This document shows, one piece after another, positions 2,218 to 15,003 of a DNA stretch of 38,033 nt. The notes under the pieces are model-generated. The model did not search any database. It had not been told where the DNA came from and saw only the letters and a list, made by a program, of their open reading frames with translations. A program made the position numbers and the translations under genes. The DNA comes from a virus (lineage: Duplodnaviria; Caudoviricetes): positions 1-38,033 of IMG/VR virus record IMGVR_UViG_3300018050_000387; one strand, written 5' to 3'. Each line of letters starts with the position of its first letter. Within the stretch, counting starts at the first letter, position 1.

Positions 2218-3134
2218 GTAGACGTTTTCATACTACTGAGTGGGATTTGTTGCCCGAGTTGGCGTTTCGCCCGCGCCCTGGCGGTGGCATGACGTTTGAA
2301 GGCGGCAAAGGTGGAAGTGCCGCTCCTGAACCTGATGCCAATATTGGCATTGCCCAAAGAGAACTATCTGCCTTGGCAAAAGAGCAATGGACAGAGTTCA
2401 AGACCAATATTTACCCTGACCTTCAAGCAGCAGCTGCTAAGCAAGAAACTCGTGCGCAGGGTTTGTACGACGTTACATCTGCAACTATGAAGAAGCAGCT
2501 GGAGTACTCCGAAAAAGATCGTGAACGCTACGAAAAGGGCGGTATTCCGCTTATGGAAGCGATTCGTAAAGAAGCTGTTGAGTACAACGAACCTGCTTAT
2601 CAAGAAATGATGGCGCTTCGCGCTGGTGCAGACGTGGCTACTGCATCTGAAAATCAACGCCAGCAAACAATTATGCGGCAACAACAGTATGGGATTGACC
2701 CCACTTCTGGTGTTGCGGCTGGCAATGAAAACGTCAATTCTGTTCTAACTGCTGCTGCGCAAGCACAGGCCCAAAACCAGACACGTATGGCGGCTAAAGA
2801 AATTGGTTTGGCTAAGTTGGGTAATGCGTACAACATGTATGCTGGCTTGCCGTCACAGGCAAATACAGCGACCAATACAGGTGTTGCTGCCGGAACTACG
2901 GGGGTCACCACCGCTCAATCTGGTGTGACCAATAAACTGGCTATTGCTGATTCTTTTAATCGCGGCACCTCAACGGCTATGGGCGGGTGGAATAGCGTTG
3001 GCCAACTTGGCGTTGGTAAGTATCAAGCTGATATTTCAGCATATAACGCACAGCAGCAAGCTGAAGGCGCTATGTGGGGCGGACTGGGTTCTGCGGTTGG
3101 GTCTGGTATTGGTCTGTACGCCCAGATGCAATAG
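2214..3134 (+). CDS. DNA ejection / pilot protein, P22 gp7-like
   Basis: GGAG RBS and ATGA overlap; N-terminal leader then E-GGKGG; Ala/Gln-rich helical body; Gly-rich hydrophobic C-terminus (MWGGLGSAVGSGIGLY). Confidence 0.7.
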   Translation: MSRRFHTTEWDLLPELAFRPRPGGGMTFEGGKGGSAAPEPDANIGIAQRELSALAKEQWTEFKTNIYPDLQAAAAKQETRAQGLYDVTSATMKKQLEYSEKDRERYEKGGIPLMEAIRKEAVEYNEPAYQEMMALRAGADVATASENQRQQTIMRQQQYGIDPTSGVAAGNENVNSVLTAAAQAQAQNQTRMAAKEIGLAKLGNAYNMYAGLPSQANTATNTGVAAGTTGVTTAQSGVTNKLAIADSFNRGTSTAMGGWNSVGQLGVGKYQADISAYNAQQQAEGAMWGGLGSAVGSGIGLYAQMQ

Positions 3135-3135
3135 T

Positions 3136-3885
3136 ATGTTTGACAATTTGTTTGCTCGCCACAGTAAAGTTGCTTTGATGTACTCAGGCGGGAAAGACTC
3201 GCTTGCGTGTTTGCATCTACTTAAAAATTATTTGGACAAACTTACAGTAGTTTGGGTAAACACAAATGCTGGGTTCCCAGAAATTCAGGAAACTATGGAG
3301 CAACTCAAAATTAGAGTTCCTAATTTTCTTGAAGTTGTAAGTGACCAGCCTACTTCTGTTGCGCTACGTGGGTACCCGTCTGATGTTGTACCAGTAAGTT
3401 ACACGGCTACAGGGCAACAGTTTGAGCAAACCCAAAATATTACGTTGCGCACTTATATAGATTGCTGTTCAGAAAATATGTGGAATCCGTTAGACCAAGC
3501 AATTAAAAAATTTGGTTTTACCGCTGCTATTTTTGGACAACGTTTTGATGAAATTCGTAAAGCCCCCGGTAAGTCCGGGAACATTTATGATGGCGTGGAG
3601 CGCATCCACCCTATTGAGGATTGGACTAAAGAAGACGTATTGGCGTATCTTACTGAATGCGGGGTTGACACGTCAGGTCGGCTTAGCATGGAGCACTCCT
3701 CATTGGATTGCTGGAACTGCACTGCGCACTGCAACCATTCTGTAGAACGTATGGCCTACATCAAAACAAACCATCCAGAAAAGTATACGCACGTTGTGCA
3801 ATTGCTTCGGCGGATTGATAATGCAGTAACGGAACAAATGTCGGGGCTACGCGCTCTGACTCGAGAGGAAAATCATGGCGTTTAA
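3136..3885 (+). CDS. PAPS reductase-family (PP-loop adenine nucleotide alpha-hydrolase) protein, 249 aa
   Basis: YSGGKDS PP-loop, GQRFDE, HPIEDWTKEDV, SSLDCWNCT; ATG at 3136 follows the upstream stop (2944 start overlaps the previous gene and is unlikely). Confidence 0.85.
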   Translation: MFDNLFARHSKVALMYSGGKDSLACLHLLKNYLDKLTVVWVNTNAGFPEIQETMEQLKIRVPNFLEVVSDQPTSVALRGYPSDVVPVSYTATGQQFEQTQNITLRTYIDCCSENMWNPLDQAIKKFGFTAAIFGQRFDEIRKAPGKSGNIYDGVERIHPIEDWTKEDVLAYLTECGVDTSGRLSMEHSSLDCWNCTAHCNHSVERMAYIKTNHPEKYTHVVQLLRRIDNAVTEQMSGLRALTREENHGV

Positions 3886-5683: not shown

Positions 5684-8600
5684 ATGGCCTCTTCTTTCGT
5701 CCCCTTTCGCACGGTCGTTGGGTCAGAAGACAACAATTCTGGGTTTCAACCTATTCGGGAAGTAACACTTCCGCCGCCGCCCAAAGGCGGGTTTTTCTCC
5801 GACATTAAACGGGGTACGGGCCAAGTTGTTGAAGCCGTTGGTTCTACACTCCAAGATGTTGGTGCGGATGAAGTTGGCCAAGCCATTGAAGGCTATGGTC
5901 GCGGTGTTGTTCGCCGCAATCCTTCAGAGATTGGGACGTTTGGTGAGGCGCTAAGTAGCCCGCTTACTACCGCCCGTGAAGCCGTTGGCGAACTTGTTCC
6001 GCAGATTGGCTCTTCTCTTGCCACTGGTTTGGCTGGGCGAGTGGTTGGCGGCGCTTTGGGCTTACCTTTTGGGCCTGTTGGTGTGGCCGTTGGTCAAAAC
6101 CTGGGGGCAGCTGGTGGTGCGTACCTTGGAAACTTGGTACAAGAATACGGCGGCATTCGTACTGAACAGCGCGAACAAGGCATAGAGGATAAAACCCGCG
6201 CTCTGGGTACTGCTGGTGCTGCTGCGGTGCTTGACACTGCGTTTGGTGCTGAAAGAATTGCCAACAGATTCCTCAAAGAAGGCTCCGACATTCTGGCCCG
6301 TCAACCGGGCAGCAGCCTTTTAAAGCAAGTCGGCAAACAAGGCGCAATTGGGTTTGGGATTGAGTCTGTCACTGAGGGAGCGCAAACCGGCCTTGAGCGG
6401 TATGGCGCATACAAACCCCTGACTGGCGATGAAGCGTACAACGAGTATGGCTTAGCCATGCTGAAAGGCGGTATTGGTGGCGGCGTTGTTCGTGGCGGGT
6501 TGGCGGCTGTTGCGGGGGAACAAACTCCTCCTGGCGGAAGTCTGCTTCAAGGCGGAAACAAAACCCAAGACACCAATGCTATCCAGCAAGCGTTTGACCA
6601 ACCTCAGACTTCTGGGACACCGCTTACAAACGTAACGCCCCCACCTGCGCCACCTATCACGCCATCGGCTGATACCACGCCACCTCCAGCACCCATCGTG
6701 TCTGGGGGCACAACGCCCATTGCACAGGCTACCCAACAACAGGGCCAAGCGGACGCTGCTGCACAGCAACAACAGCAACAGCAAGCACAACGTGACCTGA
6801 CAATCAGCCAGTTTGGTTTGACCGGAGACACTCCTGGCACTGGAAGCTTCTTTGGTCGTCCGATCTTTGGGCCAGCAATAAATCAGGTTGCTGATGCACT
6901 TGCCCCTATTGCAGCGCAGTTAAACCCTGCCGAAGCTGCCATCATGGACGCCATTGTTACCGCAGACCAAAAGCTGGGCAACAAACTTTTAAGCTTTCAA
7001 TTTAACGCCGATAAAATTGCCAACTCTGTCCAGAAGGGCGTGCAGGCGGTTACGACTGCGGCTACCAAATTCCAGATTGCTGACGTTCAAACCGTGGGCG
7101 AAGCTGCATATAGACTCAATGAACTCTCAAAGTCTGCCAAAGGGCAGGCGCTGGAACAAATCAACGCCATCCATGAAGCCTTGACTGGTAAGGACACGGA
7201 AGGGTATATTGCATCACAGACCTCAAAACCGAAAGGAAAATCAAATGTACAGCAACAACAGCAAGTGTCTTCCGGGCTGGGAACAGTTCCAGTCCAAGGC
7301 GGAACAATCCAAGGCGATGGCGGACTCACTGGGCTTTTACAACCCGGCGCAGTTCAACCCGTCGGGGCAGGAGTTGTCTCTGGAGCAGCGAATGACCAGC
7401 AAGCTGGACAGCTACCAGGAGAAGGAATACGGACTGGCCCCAGTGTCGCCCCCGCAGATGATCTCGGTGGTGCTGCCCAAACGCCGCAAGATGTAAGTGG
7501 AGCGCCAAGTGAAACAACCGTCGCCACCGCCCCAAGTGCCCAAAATGTCGAAGCAAACGCGCCAGTACTCGAACAAGGGGTACAGCGCGGTGGCGCGGCA
7601 CCTACTGGGACTGTTCAAACCCAAGAAGGGCTAAGCCCTGGGCGAGTTGCTTGGGAGGAAATGGACGGCACGGGTACATCGTTTGATGACCTGCCTGAAA
7701 ATCTTCAGCAAGTTTGGGAACGTGCCGTAGCCGAAAACAGGGCCACTGGGGACATTCAAGAAACACTGGCCGCTAGTGCTCAGGATACTAGCCTTGCAGC
7801 CAAGGCCCGCGCTGTGTTGCGTGCCGCATTGGACATGGTTATTCAGCCAACGTCCAGGATGTCCGAAGATGTAGCCGCCCGTAAACGAGAGTTTGTCGCA
7901 GCCTATTGGGGTGGCGCACGTTCTGATGCACTGACAAAAGTAGCTGCTGACCTCGGCATTTCCAAAGATCAGGCCAAACGGTGGTCTGCTGAGTTGCCCA
8001 ACTTCTTGACCGTAAATGGTCAGAAGATCAAAGCTGCGGTTGAGACCGTCGCCAAAGAGCGTGGCATTGACATTGCTGACGTACTTGATGGGTTGCGCAG
8101 CATTGAGGAGCAGCATCCAACCGAAGAAATGGTGGATGAGATTGAAGGCACAGGCCAAAGCACTTCTGCCACGGAAGAGCCGTTGTCTTCTGACCAAGAA
8201 GATATCGAAGTAGATCAGGGACAGCTTAACAAAGCACCTGAGGAAGAACTCAACACTGCGGAAGCTGATGCCGGGCAGAATGATTTTGTCATCTCCAGCC
8301 GTAAAAGCGCCAGCCTGCAAGAACAGAACAACGCAGTTGAAACCAACCAAGCCAAGATCATGCGCTTGTTGGACATGCAAGACAAGATCAACGAAGCCGA
8401 GTCTATCGAGAATCCCCCGGCTCCAAAGATTGTTTCTTTGTCCGAAGCTGCATTGGAAAAGCTTGGCGGCGATGTCACCAAACTCAAAGAACACGACTTG
8501 TTGAATTTGGCCGTGAACGCCAAACTGACTGAAAACTTTGAACTTGCTGACCAACTCAACGCAGAGTTAAGCAGCCGCATTGAAAAAGCGCTTGAAAAAG

Positions 8601-11600
8601 CTCAGAAGCAAGCAGACCAGAAAACCCAGAAAGGGACGACAAATGCCGTTCAAGAGCCAAGCACAGAAAAAGTATCTGTTCCTGAAGGAGCCGCAGGTGG
8701 CGAAGAAGTGGGCAAAGGAGTCGCCAAAGTCGGCAAAGCTACCCGAGTACGTAAAGCCAAAGTCGAAAAGCCCGTCGAAACCAAAGTCGAAGAAGTAACT
8801 CCTGCCGTCCTTACGCCCAAAGAGCAATGGGACGCACTCACACAACAATTTCCTGGGATGCCTCCATATGATGTTCTTACAAAATCTGAAAAAGAAACTT
8901 GGGACGATTTTGCCAACCGTGGTTTCGGTGACATCGGGTCTGTGGCAACGGTTCTTGGAGGCGCTGACAAAATTGCAAAAGCGTCTGAAGCGGTAACTGA
9001 AACTGCTGCGCCTGCTGTTGAGCCTGTCGTTGAGCCTGCTGCTGAACCCGTGGCTGAAACTGCCGCGCCTGTTGAGGAAACTGTCCAAGAGCAAGTGACT
9101 GAAGAAGTCCTCGCCCCTCAACTGGAAGCCCTGCCTGAAGCACAAGTCCAACGCCTTGAAACCCACTACGGTGAAAAGCGTGACTCTGCTTCCTTCTTGG
9201 CTAAGGTCAAAGAAGATGTGGTGTTGTATGCCACCAAGGGTGCGCAGGCTGTAGCTGGTGCAATTCGAGATGTCATCAAGGCCATCCATGCTGGTGTCCT
9301 GTCCGTGGCCATGATCTTTAACCCAGGGGCAATATCACAACTGGAATCCTTCGTGGTCATCCCGCAGGAAACCCAGACTACGACCCAACAGGTTTTGGCG
9401 GAAGTGCCAGCCGACGTTGTCGGTATGTCCGATGCAGGCAAGCAAGCCTACGCTACTCTGATTCCTGCGCTCAAGGGCAAGCTTGGGGACAAGTTTATAA
9501 CCATTGCCGACAAGCCAAGTGGACGCATCTTTGTGTTCAAAGCTGATGGCAGTCTGGTCATACAGAAGAAAGCCCTGTTTGGCTTGGCTAAGGGCGACTT
9601 GTACAAAGGCAACAACGATGTTCCGTCCAATCGTGTAACTCCCGCTGGTTTGTTTGGTATCAACATTGTGGACGCCGCCAAGGGGGGCGCTGCTGCCAAG
9701 ACTGCTGGTGACTATGACTTCGGCAAAGTGTTTGCCTTGGACGACCCTGATGCCACGGTGACTTTCATGCACTCCGTCTGGCTCAAAGAGTCTGACGCTC
9801 CCAAACGTGCTGCTGCCTTGAAGAACGAGTCTGCCACTGACTCACGCTACTCGTTTGGCTGTATCAACGTGGACAAAGAAACGTTCAAGGACATGGTCAC
9901 CAAGTACAGCGACCAGATGGACGGCTCCAAGTTGTTTGTGGTTCCTGACGCTCAGAGCACGGTCAATGACTTTGTAACTGGCAACGTGGCCAACGACAGG
10001 CTCATCCGCGAAGGGGTGCAGCCCGTAACCAGAACCACTACGACTCCAGTTAAGTCAGCCACACAAACTGCTGGTGTCAACCGAACCGTCGTTGGTAAGG
10101 AAGAACAAGCGCCCACCACTCAACAGTCTCGAGCAAACCAGCCTGTCGTAGAACGCTACACCGCTGAAGAACTGCAAACGTCTTTGCTGGACTATGTAAA
10201 CCGTGAGTCTTTGGGTAAAGATGTTTTTGTAGTCGATGAACTGGAAGACCTTCGTTCGCTGCCTGAGTTTGCAGCAATGACGGATGAAGAGTTTGCCAAC
10301 TTCCTGACCAAGGAAAAGATTGACGGGCAGACCCAAGCGTTTGTTACCGAAAGCGGCAAGGCTTACTTGCTTGCCAGCAATATCGACGTGGGCACAGGTC
10401 GTGGCGTGTTCATGCACGAAGTCGGCGTCCACCTTGGATTGCAAGAGAAATTGCCTGATGCGTCGTTTGCTCGTTTGGTTGACCAGATCAAGGTCTGGGC
10501 CAAACTTAATGACGGGTCGATTGAAAACCAGCTGGCTATTGCAGCTTCAGACCGTGTGTTCCAGTCTCGAGTTTCTGACCCTGTCCAACGCAGACGTGAG
10601 TTTGTTGCGTACTTTGTCGAAGCCGCTGTAAACGCTGGGCTTAACCCCAAGGCGTATGAAAACATTCAGTCTGCTGGTTTGCGTGAGTGGATGAGGTCTT
10701 TGTGGGCGGCACTTAAGAATGCTCTGCGCAAACTACGTGGCATCAACATTGACAAACTGAGCGCCCAAGACGTAGTGGACATGACCTACGGCTATGCGCA
10801 AATGGCGATTGGCGCTCCAAAGTTCCAAGGTAGCGGCAAGATATTTCGTAAGTTCCAGATGAAATTTGCTGGAACAGGCGTTGGTCAAATGTATGGCCAC
10901 GGGTTGTACTTTACCGATAGGCCAGAAGTGGCTTCTGGTTTTGCCAAAGGGCAAACCCCTCAGTTGTATGGCGCTGATTTGGCCATTGCCAACGACGAAT
11001 TGTTAGACTGGAACACTCCGGTAGCGCAACAAAGCGCAATAGCGCAAAAAGCTGCGGCTGATGCGGCTAAAGAGTTTGGCGTAATATCTGCAAACGGCAG
11101 TGCTTTGTATAAAAGAAGTCTTCGTGGCGGGGATTTTTATAATGATCTAGCCAATCAGATGTACAAAAAAGCCACTGGTAAAGACGTAACCACCAAGGCA
11201 CAAGTTACTGAGTCACAAAAAATGGCTTCGGAATGGCTTGACGCTCACGGAGTAAAAGGCGTTAAATACGGCGGCGACAACTACGTTGTGTTTAACGAAG
11301 ACAACATCATTCGTGTCAACCGCGCAGCTGGTATGCCCACAGGGCGCATGGACAAAGGTCGGCCAGAAGTGGAGTGGGGCAGTGTCCAGCAGTCCCGTAG
11401 GGTAGACGCTGCGGTTAATCTTCTGCCGCCCAAGTTGCGCAGTCCTGCTAGGAACACAACTACCGATTTGCTGTACCAAGCCAAGAAAGGCATGTTGGCT
11501 TCTGCAATCACTGAAGACGTGATCAACATGGCCAGCAAGTTCATGAAGTCTGCCAAGACTTATCTGGCAGCGCAGTACGCACGGCAAGCTACTCGGTTAA

Positions 11601-14197
11601 ACCATGAACTGAAGATTGACAAAATTCTTACTCAGTTCGACAAACTGCCCAAGAACCTCCAGGGTACGGGTGAAGGGTCTGTCAACAAGTACATTTTTGA
11701 TTCGACCCGTGAAGGCAAGTGGGGGTACATCCCTGACGAGCGCATGGTGGGAACCACGCTGTTGACCGTTGACCCTGATATGAAAAAACGGTATGACGCA
11801 TTCCCCGATGACGCTAAAAAATTAATTCGTGATGTGTTTGAGCAAGGGTATGACGCGCTGGACGCCAAGCAAAACGCAGTGACGGCTGCGGTTGATCGTG
11901 AGTATGCTGATCGACTCAAGGCTGTCCAAGGGGACACCGAACTCACAGACAAGTTGAACAAGGAAAAGAAACGTGCACTGTCTCGTGAGAGAAAACTGCT
12001 TGGGCTGGACAGCAGCAAACCCTATGCGTACTTGGGCCGCTATGGCGACTACGTGGTTGTCGGCAAGTCTGCTGAGTACAAGTTCCATGAAGAACAAGTC
12101 AAAGCTGGGCCAGTGGTCAAGGGTGAAGACTTGATGGGGGCACGGTCTGCGGCATGGCTGGACGAGAACCGAACCAATCCTGCGCACTATGTGGTGCAGT
12201 TCGCTGAGACCCTGGGGGAAGCAAATCAGATTGCTGACCAGCTGAACGCCACTGGTAACTACGACATTGCTGAGTCCTACGAGAAAGAACCCTATTCCCA
12301 AGAAGGCGGGGACTTGTTCTTGGCTGTGGCTCGTCTGCGTACCTTGTTTGACAAAGAAGCCGAAGGCGCAAACCCAGCGGCTCAAGCGTCAATCCGCAAC
12401 TTGTTGGGGGATTTGTACCTGCACACGGTGTCTGAAGCCAGTTCCCGCAAGTCTGAATTCCAGAGGCTCAACATTTCTGGAGCCGATCAGGACATGATGC
12501 GTAATTTGGCCACTCGTGGTCGGGCTGATGCACACTTCTTGGCTGCGCTGGAACACAATGACGCTATCTCGGACGCCATCACTGCCATGCGTGAAGAACG
12601 CAATCGCAATCGCGGAGAGGCTGGCCCATACTTCAACGAACTGCTCAAGCGTCATGCGAACAGTATGAAGTATGAAACTCCTGGCGTGTTGTCCGGTGCG
12701 TTGCTGCGTATGTCCAACGTGTGGTACTTGGCCACCAACCCAGCGTATTACTTGCAGCAGATTCTGCAAACTGGGGTGTTGTCTCTGCCGTATATGTCTG
12801 GGCGTCTGGGGTATTTCCGCTCAGCCCGTGCTGTAAAGAAAGCATACGGCGACATGGCTACCCTGGTTAAGGGACTGGGTGTTGGCGACCACATTGATTT
12901 CAACAAAGCCCCCGCTGACGTGCGCGAGATGCTAACCAAGCTGGTTGGTATGGGCAAGATTGACATTGGTATTGACTCTGACGCTCGTGTCCGCGCTGGC
13001 GAAGCTGGCGTTGCCGCCAAGGTGATGCAGAAACTCCAAGGGGTAAACAACCGCATCGAAGCAGTCAACCGGGCAACTGCGGCAATTGCTGCATATCGTG
13101 GGTACTTAGACCGCTACAAGAACGGCGACACTGCTGCTGCCACCGCATATGCTGCTGATGTGGTGTCAAACACCCACGGCTCGTACGATGCTTTCAATAC
13201 GCCACGTATCATGCAGACTGGTGCTGGCAAAGTGTTGCTTCAGTTCAAGCGGTTCCAGATCATTCAAATCTCCATGCTGCTCAAGCTGATCAACACAGCG
13301 TTCAAGGGTGCATCTCAAGATGAGAAAGCAGTTGCGCGTCGTGCCCTTGGTTTTATTGCTGGTCACATGATGGTGTTGGGTGGTGCAATTGGTGTTCCGC
13401 TTGTACAGCAGTTTGGTTCGCTTTTGCTCAAAGCATTTGGCGATGACGATGAACCAGAGAACCTGGAACTCACACTGCGGCGTTTGATCAATGACCCTGT
13501 CATGGCGGACTTGCTGATCAATGGTGTCCCTGGTGCGCTTGGTGTCAACTTGGGCAGCAAACTGGGTATGGGTAACGTGTTCTCCATCCTGCCATTCACA
13601 GACATTGATTTTACAAGCCGTGCTGGCGCAGAGAAAATGCTGGTCGGCATCATGGGGCCATCCGCTGGTCTGGGTCTGAAGTTTGCTGACGGCTTGGGTC
13701 AGATGGCAAGTGGGGAGTACTACAAGGGTTTGGAGTCCATGTTGCCAAGCGGTGTGGCCAATGTGATGAAAGCTGGTCGATTTGCCACTGAAGGTGTCAC
13801 CATGCGTAATGGCGACGTGGTCTTGAAGCCTGAAGAGATCAGCATGTTTGACGCAGCGTTCCAAGCTGTTGGCCTGCCCACGACTACTCTGACAGATCGC
13901 CAATTTACCCAGCGTGTTGTTGCTGAGTTTGACAAGTTCTACGACAAGCGCACCACGGAAATCAAGGGCGACTACGTCAACGCTTCCCGTGACGGGGATG
14001 TAAATGGTATGGCTGATGCTCGTGAGGAATGGAGTAAACTTCAAGAATCACGGGTCAAGAATGGCTACAAACGCCAGCCTTTATCCGATCTGTTTAGAGC
14101 GCCTTCTGCCGCAGCCAAGCGGGAACGCAACATTGCTGGTGGTGTGGAGTTTAGCAAATCTAACCGCCAATTTGTAGAATCTTTATCAACCCTTTAA
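5684..14197 (+). CDS. Giant polyvalent ejection protein (2837 aa) with L,D-transpeptidase-like, zincin metallopeptidase-like, ART-like and PLxRFG-like segments
   Basis: Gly-rich membrane-like N-terminus; TPAG...FMHSVW...SFGCINV (YkuD-like); FMHEVGVH...REFVAYFVE; YGHGLYFT...GVKGVKY...NYVVF; YAYLGRYGDY; helical C-terminus with LLQFKRFQ. Confidence 0.85.
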   Translation: MASSFVPFRTVVGSEDNNSGFQPIREVTLPPPPKGGFFSDIKRGTGQVVEAVGSTLQDVGADEVGQAIEGYGRGVVRRNPSEIGTFGEALSSPLTTAREAVGELVPQIGSSLATGLAGRVVGGALGLPFGPVGVAVGQNLGAAGGAYLGNLVQEYGGIRTEQREQGIEDKTRALGTAGAAAVLDTAFGAERIANRFLKEGSDILARQPGSSLLKQVGKQGAIGFGIESVTEGAQTGLERYGAYKPLTGDEAYNEYGLAMLKGGIGGGVVRGGLAAVAGEQTPPGGSLLQGGNKTQDTNAIQQAFDQPQTSGTPLTNVTPPPAPPITPSADTTPPPAPIVSGGTTPIAQATQQQGQADAAAQQQQQQQAQRDLTISQFGLTGDTPGTGSFFGRPIFGPAINQVADALAPIAAQLNPAEAAIMDAIVTADQKLGNKLLSFQFNADKIANSVQKGVQAVTTAATKFQIADVQTVGEAAYRLNELSKSAKGQALEQINAIHEALTGKDTEGYIASQTSKPKGKSNVQQQQQVSSGLGTVPVQGGTIQGDGGLTGLLQPGAVQPVGAGVVSGAANDQQAGQLPGEGIRTGPSVAPADDLGGAAQTPQDVSGAPSETTVATAPSAQNVEANAPVLEQGVQRGGAAPTGTVQTQEGLSPGRVAWEEMDGTGTSFDDLPENLQQVWERAVAENRATGDIQETLAASAQDTSLAAKARAVLRAALDMVIQPTSRMSEDVAARKREFVAAYWGGARSDALTKVAADLGISKDQAKRWSAELPNFLTVNGQKIKAAVETVAKERGIDIADVLDGLRSIEEQHPTEEMVDEIEGTGQSTSATEEPLSSDQEDIEVDQGQLNKAPEEELNTAEADAGQNDFVISSRKSASLQEQNNAVETNQAKIMRLLDMQDKINEAESIENPPAPKIVSLSEAALEKLGGDVTKLKEHDLLNLAVNAKLTENFELADQLNAELSSRIEKALEKAQKQADQKTQKGTTNAVQEPSTEKVSVPEGAAGGEEVGKGVAKVGKATRVRKAKVEKPVETKVEEVTPAVLTPKEQWDALTQQFPGMPPYDVLTKSEKETWDDFANRGFGDIGSVATVLGGADKIAKASEAVTETAAPAVEPVVEPAAEPVAETAAPVEETVQEQVTEEVLAPQLEALPEAQVQRLETHYGEKRDSASFLAKVKEDVVLYATKGAQAVAGAIRDVIKAIHAGVLSVAMIFNPGAISQLESFVVIPQETQTTTQQVLAEVPADVVGMSDAGKQAYATLIPALKGKLGDKFITIADKPSGRIFVFKADGSLVIQKKALFGLAKGDLYKGNNDVPSNRVTPAGLFGINIVDAAKGGAAAKTAGDYDFGKVFALDDPDATVTFMHSVWLKESDAPKRAAALKNESATDSRYSFGCINVDKETFKDMVTKYSDQMDGSKLFVVPDAQSTVNDFVTGNVANDRLIREGVQPVTRTTTTPVKSATQTAGVNRTVVGKEEQAPTTQQSRANQPVVERYTAEELQTSLLDYVNRESLGKDVFVVDELEDLRSLPEFAAMTDEEFANFLTKEKIDGQTQAFVTESGKAYLLASNIDVGTGRGVFMHEVGVHLGLQEKLPDASFARLVDQIKVWAKLNDGSIENQLAIAASDRVFQSRVSDPVQRRREFVAYFVEAAVNAGLNPKAYENIQSAGLREWMRSLWAALKNALRKLRGINIDKLSAQDVVDMTYGYAQMAIGAPKFQGSGKIFRKFQMKFAGTGVGQMYGHGLYFTDRPEVASGFAKGQTPQLYGADLAIANDELLDWNTPVAQQSAIAQKAAADAAKEFGVISANGSALYKRSLRGGDFYNDLANQMYKKATGKDVTTKAQVTESQKMASEWLDAHGVKGVKYGGDNYVVFNEDNIIRVNRAAGMPTGRMDKGRPEVEWGSVQQSRRVDAAVNLLPPKLRSPARNTTTDLLYQAKKGMLASAITEDVINMASKFMKSAKTYLAAQYARQATRLNHELKIDKILTQFDKLPKNLQGTGEGSVNKYIFDSTREGKWGYIPDERMVGTTLLTVDPDMKKRYDAFPDDAKKLIRDVFEQGYDALDAKQNAVTAAVDREYADRLKAVQGDTELTDKLNKEKKRALSRERKLLGLDSSKPYAYLGRYGDYVVVGKSAEYKFHEEQVKAGPVVKGEDLMGARSAAWLDENRTNPAHYVVQFAETLGEANQIADQLNATGNYDIAESYEKEPYSQEGGDLFLAVARLRTLFDKEAEGANPAAQASIRNLLGDLYLHTVSEASSRKSEFQRLNISGADQDMMRNLATRGRADAHFLAALEHNDAISDAITAMREERNRNRGEAGPYFNELLKRHANSMKYETPGVLSGALLRMSNVWYLATNPAYYLQQILQTGVLSLPYMSGRLGYFRSARAVKKAYGDMATLVKGLGVGDHIDFNKAPADVREMLTKLVGMGKIDIGIDSDARVRAGEAGVAAKVMQKLQGVNNRIEAVNRATAAIAAYRGYLDRYKNGDTAAATAYAADVVSNTHGSYDAFNTPRIMQTGAGKVLLQFKRFQIIQISMLLKLINTAFKGASQDEKAVARRALGFIAGHMMVLGGAIGVPLVQQFGSLLLKAFGDDDEPENLELTLRRLINDPVMADLLINGVPGALGVNLGSKLGMGNVFSILPFTDIDFTSRAGAEKMLVGIMGPSAGLGLKFADGLGQMASGEYYKGLESMLPSGVANVMKAGRFATEGVTMRNGDVVLKPEEISMFDAAFQAVGLPTTTLTDRQFTQRVVAEFDKFYDKRTTEIKGDYVNASRDGDVNGMADAREEWSKLQESRVKNGYKRQPLSDLFRAPSAAAKRERNIAGGVEFSKSNRQFVESLSTL
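7245..7496 (+). CDS. Candidate overprinted gene A (83 aa) in +1 frame of the giant gene
   Basis: GAAAGGAAAATCAA-ATG; product MYSNNSKCLPGWEQFQSK...PKRRKM has normal complexity while the host frame is low-complexity Q/G/V. Confidence 0.6.
   Translation: MYSNNSKCLPGWEQFQSKAEQSKAMADSLGFYNPAQFNPSGQELSLEQRMTSKLDSYQEKEYGLAPVSPPQMISVVLPKRRKM
7509..7634 (+). CDS. Candidate overprinted gene B (41 aa, basic) in +1 frame
   Basis: GGAG-6nt-GTG just after gene A stop; MKQPSPPPQVPKMSKQTRQYSNKGYSAVARHLLGLFKPKKG. Confidence 0.45.
   Translation: MKQPSPPPQVPKMSKQTRQYSNKGYSAVARHLLGLFKPKKG
8643..8798 (+). CDS. Candidate overprinted gene C (51 aa, basic MPFKS-type phage protein) in +1 frame
   Basis: AAAGGGA-6nt-ATG; MPFKSQAQKKYLFLKEPQVAKKWAKESPKSAKLPEYVK resembles small phage proteins I recall starting MPFKSxAQ...PExAKxW. 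Confidence 0.75.
   Translation: MPFKSQAQKKYLFLKEPQVAKKWAKESPKSAKLPEYVKPKSKSPSKPKSKK
8992..9080 (+). repeat. Degenerate tandem repeats encoding an ETAAP/EPAA/EPVV linker
   Basis: CTGAAACTGCYGCGCCTG occurs twice and GTTGAGCCTG twice; translates to VTETAAPAVEPVVEPAAEPVAETAAPVEE. Confidence 0.7.
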
Positions 14198-14500: not shown

Positions 14501-14755
14501 ATGGCTAAGTCACCAGCATGGCAACGCAAAGAAGGCAAGAATCCAAACGGGGGACTCAACGCCAAGGGGCGAGCGTCTTACAACGCAGCAAACCCAGGAA
14601 AGCCGGGGTTGAAAGCGCCGCAACCGGAGGGCGGCAGCAGACGGGACTCGTTCTGTGCCCGGATGGAAGGCATGAAGAAAAAGCTGACCAGCGAGAAGAC
14701 AGCGAAAGACCCGAACAGCCGAATCAACAAATCATTGAAAGCATGGAAGTGCTAA
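14501..14755 (+). CDS. Small basic conserved phage protein (DUF6321-like)
   Basis: AWQRKEGKNPNGGLNAKGRASYN...RRDSFCARM...SRINKSLKAWKC is a recognisable phage family pattern. Confidence 0.8.
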   Translation: MAKSPAWQRKEGKNPNGGLNAKGRASYNAANPGKPGLKAPQPEGGSRRDSFCARMEGMKKKLTSEKTAKDPNSRINKSLKAWKC

Positions 14756-14757
14756 TC

Positions 14758-15003
14758 ATGACTGAAGCTGACATCACCACCGCCCGCGAATTGGCCACTC
14801 ATGCGGCCAACATAAAGCACTTGCAAGACGATATGGACAAGCTTGTTCAAGATGTCAACGACATCAAAGCTGCTCTGTTTGAAATCCAGAAAACGTTGTC
14901 TGAAGCCAAGGGTGGCTGGCGGATGCTCATGATGATTTCTGGCGTAAGCGGCACAGTTGGTGCGGCAATCACGCAGCTTGCACATTACCTATCCGGTAAA
15001 TAA
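14758..15003 (+). CDS. Coiled-coil protein with C-terminal transmembrane helix (holin/XhlA-like candidate)
   Basis: Heptad-rich N-terminus then GGWRMLMMISGVSGTVGAAIT; ATG 2 nt after upstream stop. Confidence 0.6.
   Translation: MTEADITTARELATHAANIKHLQDDMDKLVQDVNDIKAALFEIQKTLSEAKGGWRMLMMISGVSGTVGAAITQLAHYLSGK

Follow-up and report, generated by a model that had tools for sequence, protein, structure and literature searches.

Nested open reading frames at the locus

The window, as we call the whole stretch of 38,033 nucleotides that was analysed (IMG/VR record IMGVR_UViG_3300018050_000387), is a 38-kb podophage-like record of a freshwater podophage, and this study concerns three small open reading frames (ORF1, ORF2 and ORF3) that lie inside a giant gene of its late cassette (Table 1). 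As a first-pass annotation of this DNA had claimed, all three are found within the giant in its +1 frame; the offsets of their starts from the giant start (1561, 1825 and 2959) each leave a remainder of 1 when divided by three. Each ORF has its own start and stop codon wholly inside the coding sequence of the giant, an arrangement that relatives keep, and the gap between ORF1 and ORF2 is 12 nt. The purine-rich Shine-Dalgarno (SD) motifs at normal spacing that had been described are present, 5-6 nt before each start, and the supposedly low-complexity host frame indeed contains no F, W, Y or C over all three ORFs and consists of 45-60% G, A, V and Q. A start codon with an SD motif is not in itself beyond chance; six SD-led +1 ORFs of at least 40 codons occur in the giant, the named three included, and it is the comparative evidence that lifts the named three above chance. 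The remaining SD-led ORFs (starting at 6477, 11973 and 14004) were rejected as genes, the alignment windows over them showing the normal host codon pattern, and a normal host-type constraint was found for all of the other +1 ORFs that were considered (6477, 8016, 8268, 11973 and 14004). Because five near-identical strains keep the host frame open over the stretches that each of them covers, the nesting is not an assembly artefact; only one deletion is listed for near-identical strains, and its 12 nt keep the frame. We conclude that ORF1, ORF2 and ORF3 are likely to be real small genes in the +1 frame of the giant's linkers.

Table 1. Positions in the window of the giant gene, the three nested ORFs and their start signals
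Feature	Position	Strand	Description
Giant host gene	5684..14197	+	2837 aa, DarB-like / PLxRFG-type C-terminal region, virion/ejection cassette
SD-like motif of ORF1	7232-7239	+	AAAGGAAA
ORF1	7245-7496	+	83 aa, +1 frame of giant, host aa ~521-604
SD-like motif of ORF2	7499-7502	+	GGAG
ORF2	7509-7634	+	41 aa, +1 frame of giant
SD-like motif of ORF3	8630-8636	+	AAAGGGA
ORF3	8643-8798	+	51 aa, +1 frame of giant, host aa ~987-1038; MPFKS family

Codon-position constraint

In a codon alignment of nine hosts that was divided into 71 windows of 40 codons, the third position varied most in 68 of the 71, the exceptions being two windows over ORF1 and one over ORF3. Amino-acid identity in these three inverted windows was 67-71% in the +1 frame compared with 51-53% in the host frame. 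A larger test used 54 usable loci, which were reduced at 90% nucleotide identity to 41 non-redundant loci for ORF1 and 34 for ORF3. The divergence at host positions 1/2/3, which is descriptive because the loci are related and not independent draws, was.45/.38/.29 over ORF1 (41 loci; flanking control.45/.37/.66) and.39/.25/.19 over ORF3 (34 loci; flanking control.46/.45/.64), and the inversion held whichever frame was aligned. The copies of ORF3 in a second group of hosts, group B (see below), gave.35/.19/.12 (25 loci). Variation among close strains was analysed in five strains that are 82-98% identical, strain L142 being left out as identical to the window. Their variants at host positions 1/2/3 numbered 73/49/318 outside the ORFs compared with 6/0/0 in ORF1, 21/12/5 in ORF2 (Fisher p 6e-13 against the outside) and 4/2/1 in ORF3, and every change in ORF1 was silent in the +1 frame and missense in the host. 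Purifying selection acts on the +1 frame over the nested ORFs, more weakly in the case of ORF2. The suppressed third-position variation that the first-pass annotation had proposed to look for was found over ORF1 and ORF3 in relatives and over ORF2 among strains. None of the patterns that it had named as speaking against nested genes, i.e., random stops in the +1 frame, unconserved SD motifs and starts or normal third-position variation, was seen in the homologues.

ORF1 and ORF2

A scan with an ORF1 alignment recovered 55 loci, in all of which (55/55) ORF1 is nested in the +1 frame of an open giant frame, two of the copies being cut by contig ends; it is absent from five more distant hosts linked to the window clade. 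An SD-like motif precedes ORF1 in 40 of the 41 non-redundant loci compared with 353 of 2782 (12.7%) other +1 ATGs, and the stop codon is TAA in 40/41. The peptide has a near-neutral helical core and a basic C-terminal tail, its AlphaFold2 model is of middling confidence (predicted local distance difference test, pLDDT, 62), and it had no Pfam or PHROG family match and no atlas match. There are 65 ORF1-family protein clusters on record, of which 12 come from contigs longer than 10 kb; gene callers therefore sometimes call ORF1, and the initial statement that standard callers miss all three ORFs was too strong. ORF1 is a new family that is nested at every locus sampled, and it may be a true (de novo) overprint.

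A start for ORF2, which follows the ORF1 stop directly (TAA-ATG) or 12-15 nt on behind GGAG or GAGG, was found in 23/41 loci against a background of 86 of 3733 (2.3%) other +1 stops. The peptide of the window begins with a K/P-rich segment that is followed by an amphipathic-looking helix (net charge +9), and across the loci the ORF2 peptides can be grouped into several subfamilies, which have in common a K/P-rich start and a stretch that resembles a helix. In the WVAGK subfamily, the divergence over the first 30 codons is inverted (.19/.07/.03) while over the remainder it is not. The allele of the window is hypervariable, with 30 variants per 100 nt, yet it is open in four of the five strains. 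An alternative, coupled start is the GTG at 7497 directly after the ORF1 stop, which is an ATG in strain L144. Two strains lack the internal ATG at 7545, and the start is therefore placed at 7509, or at 7497 where L144 has ATG. ORF2 is probably, although not certainly, a real gene, and by its sequences it appears to be a fast-evolving gene of this slot. In the loci L085, L111 and L145, another candidate +1 ORF lies at a greater distance downstream of ORF1; with its related 'KLGKFVYNQNKPENPEF'-type peptide, it may represent a fourth nested family that replaces ORF2.

ORF3 and the MPFKS family

The ORF3 peptide is predicted to form two short helices followed by a K/P/S tail (net charge +13, pLDDT 77) and belongs to a group of small basic proteins without a family name, here called MPFKS. 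This family was found in 459 of 600 pattern-matched viral stretches, with about 2200 stretches for a second motif variant, and it amounts to 4339 clusters at 50% identity. With few exceptions, the 150 listed proteins, which range from 45 to 575 aa, carry the module at or close to residue 1. Pfam returned mostly nothing for 87 longer members; DUF5661 was detected in eight (P0107, P0134, P0150, P0163, P0174, P0184, P0187 and P0196) and is the commonest named partner of the N-terminal MPFKS modules. The nearest named cluster to ORF3 by language-model features is DUF3008 (PF11450; 0.84), which ORF3 does not match in Pfam, and free MPFKS copies show weak matches to phrog_1375 (E 7e-6 to 3e-3); both are of unknown function and hence lend no mechanism to ORF3. 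A tblastn search of cultured phages with ORF3 and with the N-terminus of a group-B host gave no match.

Among the first 82 loci and the window, an ORF3-type gene was nested in 55, plus one that is cut by a contig end, and of the 55 loci with ORF1, 46 nest ORF3 too, five are truncated and four truly lack it. An unranked pattern sample of 120 loci contained 77 with enough flank to judge, the other 43 not being counted; 39/77 copies were nested, all in the +1 frame, and 38/77 were free. The sequences indicate that MPFKS is nested in at least three unrelated host genes. Group A is the clade of the window and group B comprises AT-rich giants, with no profile match between the two in either direction, while the host of group D is an acidic gene of ~415 aa that lies where the scaffold gene usually stands, between the portal and a structural gene; minor groups exist besides. 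In family D (L209, L214, L226, L246, L267 and others), which contributes 28 rows to the peptide tree, MPFKS lies in the acidic N-terminus of a ~400-440-aa gene of AT-rich phages.

The SD-like motif accompanies ORF3 in 34/34 group-A copies compared with the 12.7% background. The nested starts copy the style of their clade: the SD fraction is 1.00 in group A (ordinary genes 0.70) and 0.00 in group B, where the upstream sequence is A-rich (ordinary genes 0.02). Group B presumably infects Bacteroidota, in line with the nested copies on contigs of Flavobacteriaceae bins. Of 40 free copies, 19 have a terminase, portal or major head gene as a neighbour, five another named gene and 16 none that is named. 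MPFKS copies occur in bacterial genome bins as well. A chromosomal subfamily that is marked by a short insertion and by a long tail rich in K (L171-L207, in bins of Acidobacteria, Gemmatimonadota, Chloroflexi and others) sits among ordinary metabolic genes on long contigs, which suggests that the role of MPFKS is not limited to capsids. A separate observation concerns the copy at L169:4991, which opens as MPFKS and then changes to the acidic frame that lies one base back; either the copy is frameshifted or the sequence contains an error.

Host frame and direction of origin

Over MPFKS, the host frame contains a stop in 0/36 nested compared with 29/36 free copies, and T occurs at 0/297 stop-risk sites in nested compared with 92/304 in free copies. 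The fraction of F, W, Y and C in that frame is 0.002 in nested and 0.072 in free copies, while that of D and E is 0.28 and 0.10, respectively. Selection keeps the host frame free of stops and hydrophilic over the nested MPFKS genes. According to the widest-distribution rule, as it is given in PMC8227390, the more widely spread frame is the ancestral one. The spread of MPFKS exceeds that of any host frame, and therefore by this rule the frame of ORF3 would be ancestral and that of the host linker new. A nested frame that is narrower than its host frame is not what was found for ORF3, with its 4339 clusters, free and bacterial copies and at least three unrelated hosts. The first-pass annotation had described small genes overprinted in the linker of a giant late gene; the small genes stood, with a conserved SD motif, start and stop and the constraint on the +1 frame, whereas the word 'overprinted' was not supported for ORF3, whose family is far wider than its host frames and exists as a separate gene. 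ORF3 is probably an old small gene through which the host linker was written.

Two loci combine a related giant with a free copy. On either side of the cassette, the giant of L014 can be aligned to nested group-B hosts; at the matching place it lacks the cassette and is ~105 aa shorter, and MPFKS stands as its own gene (L014:7998-8186) 2 nt after the giant's stop. At L218:2372-2534 (minus strand), MPFKS is its own gene 9 nt after a group-B-type giant, which shares a PHROG with the giant of the nested host L016. These loci show movement between the nested and free states, not its direction. It is fairly likely that ORF3 is an old free-living gene module that was embedded later, the host frame being the newer one, and that the compatibility of the two frames is kept by avoiding T at the third codon positions of ORF3. 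There is perhaps an even chance that, more generally, the disordered acidic linkers of phage head and ejection proteins are landing sites for whole small genes and that MPFKS is a travelling, frame-compatible cassette. Such a cassette, free of stops and acidic in the reading one base back, would move among giant ejection genes that are unrelated to one another, scaffold genes and free positions, and the giant of the window would host a small hidden operon of such passengers that are expressed above its own level.

The opposite course of events, in which all three ORFs were born de novo in the giant's linker and the free MPFKS genes are their escaped descendants, is an alternative that we consider unlikely. 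The genetic code suggests that K-rich +1 frames arise readily from E-rich linkers, ORF1 is nested at every one of its 55 loci, and the monophyly of nested MPFKS was not rejected; the free copy of L014 resembles the nested group-B copies, tail included, which suits escape and capture equally. However, the MPFKS clusters, the N-terminal fusions and the chromosomal copies in bacterial bins exceed the spread of any host frame, the rule cited above makes the small gene ancestral, and the MPFKS hosts are not detectably homologous.

Expression, function and remaining alternatives

Taken together, we hold it to be likely that the acidic or neutral linkers of the giant are dual-coding, with three small genes in the +1 frame, which is the conserved one there, and that these are likely initiated internally and give small, partly basic late proteins, probably for head assembly or DNA packing. 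On the late mRNA, the ribosome-binding sites of ORF1 and ORF3 would very probably serve for the internal initiation of their translation, and the same is likely for ORF2, the translation of which would be coupled to the ORF1 stop. The giant starts without an SD motif (SD duplex +0.1 kcal/mol in the window), and the median SD duplex in the clade is -7.9 kcal/mol for the nested ORF1 and ORF3 starts compared with -4.1 kcal/mol for the giant start. With the stronger nested starts, one transcript would, somewhat more probably than otherwise, yield few giants and many small proteins. Metatranscriptome contigs cover the region in part (X1, 7259-7726, no mismatch); they cannot show the frame, strand or level and may be DNA, and nothing follows from the parts that they leave uncovered. 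A sigma70-like site (10 of 12) at 7181-7210, just upstream of the ORF1 SD motif, was considered as a conserved internal promoter and was not accepted as such. It recurs in 8/41 loci, mostly close relatives (background 56/1640 windows), and its position is fixed by the host motif ALTG-x-x-T-x-GY.

As to function, ORF3 has an even chance of being a small DNA-binding internal head or packaging protein, judging from its net charge, its helices and the neighbours of the free copies. The roles of ORF1 and ORF2 are guesses; tentatively, they could form a coupled pair of clade-specific late proteins, with ORF2 as a fast-changing, host-facing peptide.

Several observations weigh against this interpretation. 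No free-standing ORF1 was found among the 55 sampled loci, which fits a de novo overprinting of ORF1, and the three cultured distant relatives (Mwe-JY07, PBC5 and ZX1) have neither ORF1 nor ORF3. The ORF2 slot is missing in 18/41 loci, strain L145 carries a different allele and lacks the window-type ORF2, the sequence is poorly conserved between subfamilies, and the all-pairs divergence of.54/.45/.48 shows no clear inversion. ORF3 is absent from 4/50 group-A hosts that are long enough to judge and is therefore dispensable or placed elsewhere in these four. The peptide tree has 42 columns and contains 15 nested/free changes, of which only two are forced by strong branches, and a single clade of nested copies was not rejected (approximately unbiased, AU, test p 0.24); because the tree is too short, one capture with the spread of a ready-made cassette is as possible as repeated capture. 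No functional clue was obtained from Pfam and PHROG, which had no match for the three nested peptides, from a PDB search with the ORF3 profile, which had none either, or from a fold search, which returned uncharacterised phage proteins only and none at E<=0.001.

It is very improbable that no second protein exists and that an RNA structure or a regulatory DNA element limits the third positions, ORF2 being a by-product of a hypervariable linker. The density of variants in ORF2, its swapped allele in L145 and the sigma70-like site would suit this explanation, but over 80 codons such an element would not hold positions 2 and 3 fixed and leave host position 1 free, every ORF1 change among the strains is silent in the +1 frame and missense in the host, and ORF3 is homologous to stand-alone genes. 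Highly improbable, too, is the explanation that the +1 frames are frameshift exits of the giant's ribosomes that give shorter isoforms, for which A-rich runs before the starts and a +1 frame that in group A is open for 0-61 codons before the ATG of ORF1 and for 5-124 before that of ORF3 could be cited. The ATG and SD motif are, however, conserved at a fixed spacing, the +1 stretch upstream of it differs in length between copies and has, at codons -24 to -13, the constraint of a normal host frame, and the listed family proteins, with few exceptions, have MPFKS at or close to their first residue. In group B, the +1 frame is closed 0-10 codons upstream, and frameshifting is unlikely because a stop directly precedes the ATG in 6/25 of these copies. 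That the giant is really several genes with small genes between them and an incidentally open host frame is hardly credible, since, despite the low host identity over the overlaps (51-53% against 67-71% for the +1 frame) and the modular build of the giants, the host frame is open in every nested copy while 29/36 free copies have a stop there, none of the 297 stop-risk sites has a T, the host frame is purged of aromatic residues, and the sole deletion listed among near-identical strains keeps the frame.

Setting of the giant gene

The minus strand of the window carries the replication genes (DNA polymerase A, SNF2 helicase and a primase-like gene) and the plus strand the late cassette in the order internal virion protein, GNAT, virion structural protein, PAPS reductase, a 598-aa gene and the 2837-aa giant; this gene order resembles that of phage ZX1. 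The C-terminal part of this giant matches phrog_10089 (DarB-like; E 3.7e-52) and is ~25% identical to PLxRFG/DarB-like proteins in 53 phage records. It shares this PHROG and this level of identity with the large polyvalent proteins of PBC5, PEp14, Parlo, ZX1 and F116, which are encoded at the same place, after the internal-virion, GNAT and structural genes. One difference lies in the nested genes, as all three cultured giants that were checked are without ORF1 and ORF3; another is that Pfam found no methylase or helicase domain in the giant of the window. The only polyvalent-protein Pfam match of the giant is ART-PolyVal at 21.9 bits, under its cut-off of 31.2. To judge from its gene position, the giant is presumably an injected virion protein.

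The PAPS-reductase-family gene (PF01507, phrog_424; 2944-3885) lies within this virion/ejection cassette, between the structural gene and the 598-aa gene; as its longest ORF shares 190 nt with the gene upstream of it, the true start may be later. A free-standing small basic gene of the DUF6321 family (14501-14755) is located 3' of the giant and is overlapped by a 161-aa ORF (14518-15003), the real start of which is probably near 14758. A DUF6321-like gene, judged by eye, also directly follows the free MPFKS gene of L238, and the DUF6321 and MPFKS genes may both come from a common pool of small basic late genes.

Comparison with known systems and significance

Among tailed phages, the known cases of fully nested genes are mostly spanins. 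The embedded two-component spanins (lambda Rz/Rz1 and T7 18.5/18.7) likewise have a small gene that lies fully in the +1 frame of a late phage gene. Here, by contrast, the host is a 2837-aa virion-type protein and not an i-spanin, it holds three nested genes, and the host frames are mutually unrelated. Inspection of the translations revealed no lipoprotein signal or hydrophobic signal peptide in the three nested peptides, and neither they nor the giant matched a spanin family in Pfam or PHROG. Embedded and separated spanin architectures both exist, and the authors of PMC6139136 favour the origin of the embedded from the separated form and report no family with members of both kinds. MPFKS differs from the spanin families described there in having embedded and separated members, even within one host family (L014 and L218).

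The ShiLan domain, as described in PMC11855218, is an out-of-frame insertion of an HNH endonuclease in actinophage DNA methylases that has no SD motif. It is similar in being a complete, pre-existing gene that lies out of frame in an open host frame, in a probably tolerated loop, and in its patchy presence. Unlike ShiLan in that account, the nested peptides are 41-83 aa long and non-enzymatic, have strong SD motifs in group A and no homing machinery, and the nested genes are under purifying selection in nearly all clade members; neither HNH nor any other homing endonuclease was detected in the nested ORFs by Pfam and PHROG or by the PDB search with the ORF3 profile. The overprinted accessory genes of viruses, as reviewed in PMC8227390, share the internal +1 overlap in a disordered-looking region. 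In the classic overprint the nested frame is new and narrow, whereas ORF3 shows the reverse, with a wide nested frame and a narrow host linker. No paper that describes the present nested system was found in the open-licence literature, as judged by its listings.

Three nested genes thus lie in one gene with the hidden frame being the more constrained, and one of them comes from a family of thousands that occurs both embedded and separate. The embedded and separate MPFKS pairs offer natural before and after states for the long-standing question of how gene overlaps arise and whether they are reversible. Real genes can cast a shadow that reads as the 'low-complexity linkers' of giant virion proteins; of the MPFKS genes in the unranked sample that had enough context, half (39/77) are hidden inside other genes, and ordinary annotation would often overlook such nested small proteins. 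If the travelling-cassette interpretation is true, it would mean a widespread and reversible 'reverse overprinting' that hides a large unannotated small proteome in aquatic phages.

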